In this document: in pieces, positions 523 to 3,500 of the stretch
Layout: every line of letters starts with the position of its first letter
How positions within the stretch are numbered: position 1 is the stretch's first letter
Program-made: the position numbers
IMG/VR virus record: IMGVR_UViG_2529293043_000042
Reading direction: 5' to 3' (one strand)
DNA from: a virus
Taxonomy: Duplodnaviria; Heunggongvirae; Uroviricota; Caudoviricetes
DNA length: 12,561 nt

Positions 523-3500
523 TGAGTTCACAGATAAAACACTCTCCAGGAAACCCGGGGCGGTTCACTAAGTTGAGAATCGGTGATTCTGTCCATTGGT
601 TTATTCCACCCATAGGTTTTACGCAGAATGGCAAGCAGCACTTTAAACTGTCGCTTGGTCAGATCTGCGCCTGAATAAGCCTCAATCAGCATATTTGATA
701 GTCTGGCGTAACCATCATCGAGATCTGCCACATTACGCTCCTGTTCGGCAAAGTTACCTCTGCCGAAGTTGAGTATTTTTGCTGTATTTGTCATAATGAA
801 TCCTGTGGATTGATCCAGTAATTCCCTCAGAATTGCATATCAATTTGCTTAGAGTCCCCGGCGGCCACCGGGGATTTTTTCTTTGTGATTCCATCCAATG
901 CATACTTAAAAGCCCTGCTAATCGGACTGATGTCTGATGCCATTCCGAAAGCACACAAGACCGAAGCAATAAACCGCCAGTCCGTTCTGCTTATCTTCGA
1001 TTCATGACAGCCAATCATCTTTGCCAGACCGCGCTGGGTAAGCGTTGACAGGTTGATGAGTAAATCAGTTTCAGCGCGATCAATTTCTCGCTGTGTTGGC
1101 TTGCTGTAGCTTGCTTGTGCCATTTGTTAATTTTCCTATATTGATATTGAGTTATAGCGGCACACCCAATGGATTTGCCGCTGATGTTTGCTCACCCGGT
1201 TAGAGGTGAAAGGCCATGATGAAAGAGCGGGTACTGCTTAGGCGGCTTTGTTACTGGATGGAGGGAAAACATCATCCAAAGAACATTGGCACCCTAACTT
1301 CCTGAGGCCTTCTACGATCATTCGGCAATCGTTAAGGCCAGGAGTACGGATATTCAGCTCATAGTTGGCGATGCGGGATTGCCCCCAACCAATTGCCGAA
1401 GCTAGTACAGCTTGCGAAACTCCGATTTTTTTTCGCTGCTGGGCAATTTTGTTCATTGCGGTCTCCCTAGCATTAATCACACACCCATTACACACAATTT
1501 GTGATTAACAGTCAACCTCAATTCGTGTACAGAGTTCAATCACGTTGCGTGTTACATTTAAGGGATGAAAACGATGCATGAAATTATCGGGGAAAGGATC
1601 AAGTCCCTTAGAGAAGCTAAAGGACTTAGCCAGGCTCAATTGGCCAAGCTTTGCGGCTGGGCTGCGCCTTCACGCCTGGGGAACTACGAGTTAGGAACAA
1701 GAAAGGTTAGCGCGGATGACGCGCTGGTTCTTGGGGCGGCACTCGGCGTATCTCCGGCAAAAATAATGTTTGGCGAGGATTCAGACGCCGTATTTCGCCA
1801 ATATGAATACCCGTTATTTTCTTCAGTGCAGGCCGGGCCATTTTCGGAGGTGGGAAGCTACACAGCCAGCGATGCAAAGGCATGGGTCCCAACGACCACA
1901 AAAGCCAGCGAAAAAGCTTTCTGGCTTGAGGTGAAGGGGCATTCAATGACGGCGCCTCAGGGGGTTCGTCCAAGTTTTCCGGAAGGCATGCTGATACTCG
2001 TTGATCCGGCTGAGCCGGTAGAGTCTGGGGATTTCTGCGTGGCTTCTGCAAATGGTGATTCAGAGGCAACGTTCAAGAAGTATGAGAAGGATGCAGGGGT
2101 TAGTTACCTGGTACCTTTAAACCCGGCATATAGAACCCTGGATTGCGACCATAGCTGCCGCATCATAGGCAAGGTAGTTAAGGCGCAGTGGCCTGAAGAG
2201 ACGTTTGGCTGATCGGCAAGGTGTTCTGGTCGGCGCATAGCTGGTAATCCAACTTTTCCCTGTTCTTTTTATGCAAATTAATCTAATGAAATTGAAAAGA
2301 TTTTTACCTATTTTGTTGGTTCAGGAGAACATAAATGAGCGATAAACAAGAAGTTTCCTTAGCACATATCAATGATGTGCTGGAGTCCAAAAATTATATT
2401 GAAACTAATGCTGATGGGGTTGTAACCATCGGAACGGATAACAATGGCTACGAAGTTTTTAACTTCGTTTTTCTCAATAGCACCCCTGTCATCGGCCATA
2501 TGAATGGCGAAATCGCAGTGGCAGGAATGCAGCGCACTAAGGTTGCGTCCGTGACTTTAAGTAAACAGAAGGCCTTCGATTTCTATCAGTCCTTGAAAAG
2601 CATGTTCGAGGAATAAAAGCTGATGAATGCAGCTCAATCATCTTTGGATGAGGGAAAGCTAGTAATTGCTTACTCTGATAAGAATGGCTCTACAGTAGGG
2701 CTGGAATTTTCTTCTGTAGCATCAAGCCAAGCAACGCTCTTGATGAAAGCTTGTTCTGTTGCTGCTTCAGATAAAGAAAAACGGATTGTCACATCGGTTG
2801 TGATGGATGATACTGAGATCATTCAAACAACAAGTGATGATGGAGGCGACGACATGGATAAGCGATTAGCAGTTCTTGAAGCTGAAGTTGCGCACATCAA
2901 GAGCAGCATGGCAGGAATTAAAGAGGATACCCGGAAAATATCTTCTGATTCTACTGACGCCAAAAGAGACACCGCTGTACTTTTACAGAAGAGCCTGGAT
3001 TTTGATGCTTCATTATCTAAGAAACCATCGGTTGACTACTTTGAAGCTAAATTTTCCGCTTTGGAAACCAAGATAGCAGATGTAAAAGTATGGATGCTCG
3101 GGGTTCTCTTGGCCTCGCTTGCTATGCCAACTATATTTTTCCTAATAAACTTGTACCTTAAGAAAGGTCAGTAATTTAGCAAATCCGGCCACCGAGCCGG
3201 GTTTTTTATTGCCCGCCGATCACTATCAGGACAGCACCTGCCCGCCGGTCCAAACTATTGATTAAATTACTATAATTCTTAATACAACTCCCATATCCCG
3301 CCATCTCGCCACCACCCCATTCGCTCGTTTTTCGAACTTTTCAGCACCCATCCTGCTGTTGCCACCGACTTAAGTAAGCAAAACCATCGCGGGTAAAACT
3401 ATTTACACAAAAAAATCATACACATAACGTGTCACACCTTTATTTTACACATTTTGTGATTGACCATTAAATCACAATATGTGACTATCATTTCCATCAG

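Follow-up and report, generated by a model that had tools for sequence, protein, structure and literature searches.

A 12,561-nucleotide stretch of Caudoviricetes DNA (IMG/VR record IMGVR_UViG_2529293043_000042; the whole stretch is hereafter called the window) carries, 3′ of its cI-type repressor gene, two small co-oriented open reading frames (ORFs), ORF93 and ORF183, encoding a predicted soluble protein A and a predicted membrane protein B, respectively, in the position that rexA and rexB hold in phage lambda. The two are probably a lysogen-expressed phage-exclusion cassette of some kind. More specifically, and tentatively, ORF183 is proposed to be the membrane subunit of a RexAB-like two-component exclusion system, acting as a phage-triggered membrane effector. 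The proposal of an exclusion system follows from the location of the pair behind repressors or in the sieA slot, the strict pairing of a soluble with a membrane protein, the diversity of the soluble half as against the conservation of the membrane half, and the confinement of the family to prophages, a combination typical of known prophage exclusion and abortive-infection systems and of RexAB in particular.

The slot behind cI

The genes and sites of the cassette and of the repressor gene preceding it are as follows.

1565–2212, + strand: cI-type repressor, with helix-turn-helix (HTH) and S24 peptidase domains (Pfam Peptidase_S24 3e-26, HTH_3 3e-10); start at 1574 in the VT1-Sakai annotation (AP000400)
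2186–2247, + strand: conserved junction in a three-way DNA alignment, comprising the 3′ end of cI and 35 nt past its stop codon
2213–2334, + strand: AT-rich spacer (GC content 0.36), part of the cassette, with the ribosome-binding site of ORF93, AGGAG, at 2323–2327
2335–2616, + strand: ORF93, partner protein A of type 1, 93 aa, acidic (isoelectric point 4.85), without transmembrane (TM) segment; phrog_12039 (function unknown)
2623–3174, + strand: ORF183, protein B (H0053/ECs2992), 183 aa; phrog_12602 across its full length
3181–3211, + strand: intrinsic terminator, equivalent to tImm, with a 9-bp GC-rich stem and a T-run, starting 7 nt after the ORF183 stop codon

The window is the Shiga toxin 1 (Stx1) prophage VT1-Sakai (Sp15) of Escherichia coli O157:H7. 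Its positions 2200–3660 are 100% identical to this prophage, both in the VT1-Sakai record and in EDL933 and many further O157 strains. A junction of about 60 nt, in which one base varies, is common to lambda, the wild phage HK544 and the window. Immediately 3′ of it, lambda continues into rexA-rexB, recognized by the PADLOC models at 9e-110 (RexA) and 9e-61 (RexB), whereas the window and HK544 continue into ORF93-ORF183 (library releases used throughout were PADLOC 2023, Pfam 2025 and NCBIfam 2026). Matches of 48 nt to the junction region were observed in 434, lambda and SfI. In HK544 the cassette is 99.5% identical over window positions 2200–3213, a span reaching from 13 nt before the cI stop codon to just beyond the terminator, although its cI, of lambda type, is just 45% identical. 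The GC content of the cassette is 0.41, versus 0.525 for cI. The first-pass annotation of this DNA had considered ORF183 a possible functional analog of RexB. As to the slot, that analogy was strengthened, since the pair replaces rexA-rexB at the same nucleotide junction and recurs behind many unrelated repressors; the topologies differ, as that annotation had said, with one TM helix predicted here as against four in RexB.

In the literature, the interval between cI and N is described as a mosaic hotspot where accessory loci are found; among them are two abortive-infection systems, rexAB and bstA, the latter read from the promoter of cI (PMC8585504, PMC7067206; both cite Degnan et al. 2007). 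In the VT1-Sakai annotation the promoter pRM lies just 5′ of cI, the 5′-most gene of a presumed cI-ORF93-ORF183 operon. Neither a promoter nor a terminator consensus was found in the spacer at 2213–2334, and a search for conserved −35 and −10 elements 5′ of ORF93 in nine loci found none, the junction at the end of cI being the only element common to them. The terminator that follows ORF183 is annotated as the terminator of the pRM transcript in VT1-Sakai and as Timm in HK544. Because of the analogy with rexAB and bstA, supported by the fact that no terminator consensus separates cI from ORF93, we infer that ORF93 and ORF183 are expressed from pRM in the lysogen.

A terminator scan also reported an 8-bp hairpin (three GC pairs) with a T-run inside ORF93, at 2450–2468 on the + strand, one of seven such sites in 1400–3700, where 2.7 are expected. 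This hairpin could attenuate read-through into ORF183, or it could be there by chance.

Architecture of ORF183 and modularity of its family

ORF183 starts 6 nt after the stop codon of ORF93 and is preceded by the ribosome-binding site GAGGA at 2608–2612, 10 nt before its ATG. Its translation is exactly the 183-aa protein that had been quoted for 2623–3174. A chance ORF was ruled out, as full-length homologs with 44–99% identity preserve the reading frame; the conserved hydrophobic C-terminus, the ribosome-binding site and the terminator also speak for a real gene. The following segments were distinguished in the protein, in part on an AlphaFold2 (AF2) model.

2623–2838, + strand: residues 1–72, variable N-terminal domain, with a β-hairpin and helix (10–48) followed by an acidic disordered stretch (AF2)
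2836–2853, + strand: residues 72–77, hinge DDGGDD, a Gly-rich linker conserved family-wide (GGGGGD in relatives)
2854–2952, + strand: residues 78–110, heptad-repeat helix 1, an AF2 helix with a predicted local distance difference test score (pLDDT) of 76–80
2956–3021, + strand: residues 112–133, helix 2, with the motif RDxAVxLQK..D.D..LSKKPS, conserved and without heptad period
3031–3087, + strand: residues 137–155, heptad segment 2, continuous with the TM helix
3088–3159, + strand: residues 156–179, predicted TM helix, VWMLGVLLASLAMPTIFFLINLYL, followed by the tail KKGQ at 3160–3171

The first-pass annotation had described a coiled coil followed by a single TM helix at the extreme C-terminus, in a tail-anchored layout, and this description was upheld. 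The best 19-residue Kyte–Doolittle window reaches 2.15 (residues 157–175), all other segments staying at or below about 0.9, and 47 of 50 aligned members of the family retain a hydrophobic stretch (KD18 ≥1.6) no more than 12 residues from the C-terminus. The TM helix ends four residues before the C-terminus of B, with only KKGQ after it. As in tail-anchored proteins generally, there is no N-terminal signal or TM segment, and the single TM helix lies within about 30 residues of the C-terminus. The absence of an N-terminal hydrophobic segment led us to reject a secreted or periplasmic location of B.

Heptad-like spacing had been noted around residues 78–160, which proved correct in part. For residues 78–110 the hydrophobic power at period 3.5 was 1.26, versus 0.20 ± 0.19 for shuffled sequences (none of 2000 shuffles was as high), and periodicity was also detected at residues 137–160 (p = 0.01). 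By contrast, residues 112–133, although modeled as a helix by AF2, lack it (p = 0.43), and a KKP break follows at residues 134–136. The coiled coil is thus made of two heptad segments split by a conserved non-heptad helix. Helix 1 holds the family signature M-x-x-R-L/V-A-x-L-E-x-x-V-x-x-I-K, with R81, L85, E86, V89, I92 and K93 invariant. In the hinge, G74, G75 and D76 are invariant in the alignment, and a Gly-rich run is present in 32 relatives. The AF2 model of ORF183, obtained with an 18-sequence alignment, has a mean pLDDT of 65, with helices at 78–132 and 137–182 and disorder at 59–75, where pLDDT is below 50. Foldseek searches of PDB and BFVD with this model gave no match at E ≤0.001, and when PDB sequences were searched with the family profile, the hits were all coiled-coil noise (designed trimers, adhesin stalks, Hsp70 helices). 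The partner, ORF93, is predicted to be β-rich with a C-terminal helix, its AF2 model (pLDDT 46) being too poor for a structure search, and it had no match in Pfam, PADLOC or NCBIfam. This partner, the N-terminal domain and Gly-rich hinge of B, and the membership of B in a large modular family all go beyond what the first-pass annotation contained.

A survey of 5.8 billion proteins yielded 21 clusters of full-length ORF183 relatives with 44–99% identity, all from Enterobacterales, all annotated as hypothetical and none with a Pfam domain. Their alignment has the near-invariant core DGGD-x-M-E-K-R-L-A-V-L-E-A-E-V-A-H-I-K, at least three types of N-terminal domain, and at least three unrelated sequence types of C-terminal hydrophobic helix; several TM variants are rich in Gly, Ser and Thr, a composition compatible with helix packing. 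When 1.84 billion representatives were searched with a profile, 584 proteins matched at E ≤1e-3 and 72 of these at E ≤1e-10. Most of the 584 have 90–150 aa and consist of a short variable N-terminus, a Gly run (GGGGGD), the same two helices and a C-terminal hydrophobic helix. The module formed by hinge, coiled coil and TM helix corresponds to phrog_3556, of unknown function, and has no Pfam, NCBIfam or PADLOC match. A second search, with an alignment of this module, gave at least 947 clusters at 90% identity, again all hypothetical and none with a Pfam domain, from Escherichia, Salmonella, Klebsiella, Enterobacter, Citrobacter, Serratia, Yersinia, Xenorhabdus, Pantoea, Erwinia and relatives. 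This taxonomic spread rests on searches of protein clusters and profiles; a scan of species-representative genomes gave one locus.

Among 50,697 GenBank phage records only 11 contain the family, the carriers including VT1-Sakai, phiSTEC801-Stx1a, HK544, UPF_BP1, 29485 and S107/S135/S137, and this rarity is probably why the family has not been studied so far. In the literature, ECs2992 was found only in a gene list from comparative genomic hybridization, HK544 only as a test phage, and ECO26_0580 not at all, in a search that did not cover the 2025 prophage defence screen of Brenes & Laub.

Pairing of B with a small preceding gene is strict. ORF93 homologs form 21 clusters, always with an ORF183-type gene directly 3′, and a close variant of the partner is present in more than 2000 assembly blocks. 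The retrieved contexts of ORF183-type genes, from Enterobacter, Citrobacter, Pantoea, E. coli Rac-like and Cronobacter prophages, all have the same-strand order repressor, ORF93 homolog of 93–94 aa, and B, the repressors being of at least five kinds, including a 139-aa HTH protein, a 155-aa Phage_CI_repr protein and HTH-S24 proteins of 210–255 aa. Partners and placement were then counted in 47 non-redundant IMG/VR (viral) loci. A small gene precedes the B-type gene in all 47, by overlap or at a distance of a few nucleotides; in four loci that at first seemed partner-less, the partner gene was present in the gap. An HTH repressor lies directly 5′ of the pair in 32 of the 47 (18 of them S24 and 10 Phage_CI_repr repressors). 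In the P22-like phage UPF_BP1 the pair is located after mnt, between genes 16 and 9, a position that is the sieA slot of P22-like phages (PMC10883804), and other loci adjoin tape-measure, baseplate or KilA-N genes. An intrinsic terminator, with a CCGG-rich hairpin and a T-run, is nearly always found 3′ of the pair in relatives.

The partners fall into at least three families, unrelated by hhalign: type 1 (about 93 aa), the type of the window; type 2 (110–137 aa), of zinc-ribbon type with two CxxC pairs; and type 3 (132–173 aa), which is β-rich. Type 1, type 1b and the partner of locus L076 are linked by hhalign only at E ~0.015–0.019, with a probability below 3%. None of the partner families matches Pfam, NCBIfam or PADLOC models. 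Where the partner is of type 2 or type 3, the N-terminus of B is no more than a short peptide, with a β-strand-like motif (for example IIKITKY, VFHFAHP and NVIPFNG) that may serve as a docking strand for the partner. The coupling of the B module to at least three families of A is a modularity typical of defence systems. Zinc-ribbon partners, such as that at 3550–3924 of locus L097, showed a weak match to the Lar restriction-alleviation family (TIGR03655; E = 0.004, 17.5 versus 39.6 bits), which probably reflects just the CxxC...CxxC ribbon.

The modular behavior extends into ORF183 itself, as indicated by the identity of each part of type-1 cassettes to the window.

L003: ORF93 83%, B N-terminal domain 85%, B core 47%, B C-terminus 20%, cI 25%
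L005: ORF93 76%, B N-terminal domain 81%, B core 38%, B C-terminus 29%, cI 18%
L012: ORF93 74%, B N-terminal domain 79%, B core 42%, B C-terminus 22%, cI 17%
L008 (Pantoea): ORF93 38%, B N-terminal domain 36%, B core 79%, B C-terminus 78%, cI 90%
L038 (HK544): ORF93 99%, B N-terminal domain 100%, B core 100%, B C-terminus 100%, cI 45%

The identity of ORF93 follows that of residues 1–72 of B and bears no relation to that of the B core, the B C-terminus or cI. Since the mosaic break falls at the Gly hinge, the cassette behaves as two units, A plus the N-terminus of B and the coiled coil plus TM helix, with the hinge as an apparent recombination junction between them. Comparison of the Pantoea prophage (L008/L037) with positions 1565–3174 of the window displayed a sharp internal mosaic in an otherwise similar immunity region.

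Damaged B genes were observed as well. In a Cronobacter locus (L019, 4519–4815) B has decayed to a 98-aa ORF next to an intact partner, in L042 (1050–2309) an insertion sequence (IS) transposase lies between an intact partner and B, and in a Klebsiella variant of 150 aa (P0016, on eight contigs) the TM helix is absent. Such alleles may hint at a cost of B or reflect ordinary prophage decay.

Proposed action, alternatives and prophage surroundings

As a RexAB-like system, the cassette would work as follows. ORF93 (A) and ORF183 (B) would be transcribed together with cI, up to the terminator at 3181–3211. B would be tail-anchored in the inner membrane by residues 156–179, leaving residues 1–155 in the cytoplasm, where soluble A and residues 1–72 of B would make up an interchangeable specificity or sensor unit, joined by the Gly-rich hinge to the conserved coiled-coil/TM effector unit. 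A superinfecting phage would alter the complex of A with the B N-terminus, upon which the coiled coils and the TM helices, rich in small residues, would oligomerize and permeabilize or depolarize the inner membrane. Infection would be aborted in the fashion of RexAB, through an XhlA- or holin-like action. The N-in topology, the interaction of A with B, the anti-phage role and the formation of a pore are surmised from layout and context, and depolarization on a trigger is purely conjectural. A more far-reaching version of this proposal, which we consider doubtful, is that ORF93-ORF183 exemplify a widespread, unnamed family of modular anti-phage systems in Enterobacterales prophages. Its swappable sensor would be any of at least three unrelated small proteins together with the matching docking segment at the N-terminus of B, and a Gly hinge would connect this sensor to a conserved, tail-anchored, remotely XhlA-like coiled-coil pore former, so that a holin-type suicide effector would have been domesticated for abortive infection. 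The cassette as a whole would have been exchanged between the rexAB slot, the sieA slot and loci in tail regions.

Several points weigh against a RexAB-like membrane effector. Lysines are present on both flanks of the TM helix, and the KK tail would weakly favor a C-in orientation. Confidence in the structure models is low (pLDDT of 65 for B and 46 for ORF93), and the lack of any PADLOC, Pfam or NCBIfam match means that neither protein is tied to a proven defence system. The sub-threshold sequence signals linking the family to XhlA and holins could be a remote-homology lead or, equally, a product of coiled-coil composition, and the co-variation of A with the neighboring 5′ portion of B, or some of it, could stem from physical linkage alone. 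Genes behind repressors may also be lysogenic-conversion or virulence genes. Finally, the data do not discriminate between abortive infection, with killing of the cell, and a non-lethal block of DNA entry.

Such a block is the main rival explanation, although we think it unlikely. In non-lethal superinfection exclusion, A and B at the cytoplasmic face of the inner membrane would prevent entry of the incoming genome, B being mainly a tether for the variable A; they might interfere with the tape measure, with ejection proteins or with a permease of the host, as P22 SieA and HK97 gp15 do. Occupation by the pair of the sieA slot (gene 16–mnt) in UPF_BP1 (PMC10883804), the loci adjoining tape-measure and baseplate genes, and the stalk-like coiled coil of B, which has no recognizable enzymatic or pore-forming domain, all agree with this, and SNIPE sets a precedent for a membrane-anchored cytoplasmic defence protein acting during injection (PMC13190303). 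However, known superinfection-exclusion proteins are single polytopic membrane proteins without a sensor-like partner, the strong conservation of hinge, coiled coil and TM helix suggests more than a passive anchor, and the searches turned up no sequence resemblance to SieA, SieB, Imm or gp15-type families.

The tight two-gene operon, in which a small acidic soluble protein is encoded 6 nt ahead of a membrane protein, would also suit a toxin–antitoxin-like module for addiction or induction control, in which a membrane toxin B is restrained by A, thereby stabilizing the prophage or coupling membrane or stress signals, with no anti-phage role. The decayed B alleles (the truncation in L019, the IS in L042, the TM-less P0016) fit this as well. 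We judge it improbable: no toxin–antitoxin family was matched in Pfam, PADLOC or NCBIfam, and placement in repressor and superinfection-exclusion slots together with diversification of A better fits an arms race with phages. Since many toxin–antitoxin systems are phage defences, this alternative overlaps with the favored exclusion system.

Lysogenic conversion, with a factor directed at host physiology or virulence (envelope, stress, colonization) and not at phages, appears less probable still. In its favor, the cassette is present in the O157:H7 Stx1 prophage, many prophages of enteric pathogens have it too, and the lysogen-expressed accessory genes lom and bor are virulence-related (PMC7067206). 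Yet members of the family occur only in prophages, whose hosts include commensals and plant- or insect-associated genera (Pantoea, Erwinia, Xenorhabdus), and a phage-directed function is argued for both by the modular diversity of A and by the occupation of slots equivalent to those of rexAB and sieA. Least probable of all is a lysis accessory (XhlA-, holin- or antiholin-like) that times or assists membrane disruption in the lytic cycle, a reading that was rejected on gene location: despite the XhlA-like coiled coil and C-terminal TM helix, and matches of distant relatives to PHROG families 937 and 1193 (1e-5 to 1e-6) and to XhlA (up to 20.8 bits), the gene lies in immunity, immI or tail regions with endolysin or holin neighbors in none of the examined loci, ORF183 itself matches neither XhlA nor holins, the Pfam scores of its relatives are far under 34.7, and an obligatory hypervariable partner is not an XhlA feature.

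Around the cassette, the window contains the following genes, in + strand order.

7–525: IS3-family transposase fragment, the first gene
before cI, − strand: truncated O, then cII and cro
after the terminator: oL/pL/nutL, then N (to 3959)
3976–4557, − strand: SieB homolog adjoining N (Pfam SieB 1e-25; full-length phrog_1301)
beyond sieB: cIII/kil/gam/bet/exo and further genes up to int

Given a separate sieB beside ORF93-ORF183, the immunity region has a second, independent exclusion gene. The transposase fragment, of IS1203/IS629 type, adjoins O, which is reduced to its first 88 codons (528–794, − strand) and is complete in the VT1-Sakai record; the prophage copy in the window is probably replication-defective. 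The IS–O junction was found as one piece in a few O157 genomes, for example that of strain AR-0430. An Rfam scan of the window detected a sole family, the lambda cIII thermoregulator element, at 5245–5303 on the + strand (88.5 bits versus a gathering score of 50). Between exo and int, a 315-aa ORF (8326–9273, + strand) has a long, charged, helix-like middle part.

Comparison with known systems

In E. coli, the small proteins ElaB, YqjD and YgaM (DUF883) combine a cytoplasmic helical or coiled-coil part with a TM anchor at the extreme C-terminus, and so resemble B in layout. They are, however, chromosomal stress proteins without a partner gene and not prophage genes, and ORF183 gave no hit to DUF883 at E ≤1 in Pfam.

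Like B, XhlA (PF10779) has a cytoplasmic coiled coil that leads into one TM helix at the C-terminus, and the conserved module is of similar size (about 90–110 aa). The first-pass annotation had termed this resemblance architectural only, and rightly so for ORF183, which had no match to Pfam XhlA at E ≤1 and lies outside any lysis cassette. Its distant relatives scored 13–21 bits against PF10779 (best 20.8; gathering score 34.7), E 1e-5 to 1e-6 against the PHROG 'hemolysin' families 937 and 1193, and weakly against holin PHROGs. ORF183 differs from XhlA by its additional N-terminal domain, its Gly hinge and its obligatory partner gene, and it is enterobacterial, whereas XhlA is from Firmicutes. 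No lysis genes (endolysin or holin) were found beside the B gene in the loci examined, the gene of the window and HK544 being located between cI and pL/N. ORF183 did not match holin families of Pfam or PHROG either, and a cytoplasmic N-terminal part of 155 residues is atypical of holins.

Superinfection-exclusion proteins are comparable in being inner-membrane proteins encoded by prophage accessory genes. The exclusion moron gp15 of HK97 sits among tail genes, as do some relatives of the pair, and in UPF_BP1 the pair takes the slot of sieA. Unlike SieA, a protein with three TM helices that functions on its own (PMC10883804), the system described here has two components, with a single TM helix in ORF183 and the bulk of B predicted to be cytoplasmic. 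Pfam, PHROG and PADLOC searches detected no similarity to SieA, SieB, Imm or gp15-type families, and ORF183 had no hit to SieB (PF14163).

BstA of Salmonella phage BTP1 is an abortive-infection protein encoded 3′ of cI, presumably co-transcribed with it and followed by a terminator (PMC8585504, PMC7067206). It shares with the cassette the conserved placement 3′ of a prophage repressor. By contrast, BstA is one soluble protein that associates with DNA and is accompanied by the self-immunity element aba; it has no TM helix and no sequence similarity to ORF183.

Two-component prophage defences are found in mycobacteriophages, among them Sbash gp30/gp31. The comparable pair of Butters, also gp30/gp31, consists of a cytoplasmic and a membrane protein (PMC7542560). 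As in ORF93-ORF183, two adjacent prophage-expressed genes provide a cytoplasmic and a membrane component in a RexAB-like logic, but the sequences are unrelated, the hosts are actinobacterial and the membrane partner is polytopic.

Across PADLOC-DB v2, searches with ORF93, ORF183, five partner types and five B types produced no specific match, only coiled-coil noise to LmuB and JetC. In particular, the RexA and RexB models gave no hit to ORF93 or ORF183 at E ≤1, while the same library recognizes the lambda pair. RexB is a 144-aa polytopic protein with four TM helices, in contrast to ORF183 with its one C-terminal TM helix and long coiled coil. RexA has 279 aa as against 93 for ORF93, and the partner is here modular, drawn from at least three unrelated families. 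The likeness lies in organization: the same slot and junction after cI, the same orientation, a terminator before oL/pL at the end, two co-oriented genes for one predicted soluble and one membrane protein, and presumed expression in the lysogen.

For rexAB, the classic occupant of the cI–N interval of lambdoid phages, 60 years of work have not ended the debate on mechanism. If the proposal is true, an unrelated and simpler cassette, with one TM helix and swapped sensors, would offer a tractable comparison for how phage sensing is passed on to a membrane effector. With at least 947 clusters at 90% identity the family is common, and all of it is annotated as hypothetical. One of its carriers is the Stx1 prophage of O157:H7, where keeping out other phages could influence the ecology of Stx phages; should the cassette have no phage phenotype, the Rex slot would not be reserved for defence. 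Taken as a whole, the sequence comparisons suggest that the cassette is a repressor-linked two-gene exclusion system with a membrane component, akin to RexAB in arrangement and made of proteins unrelated to the known ones.

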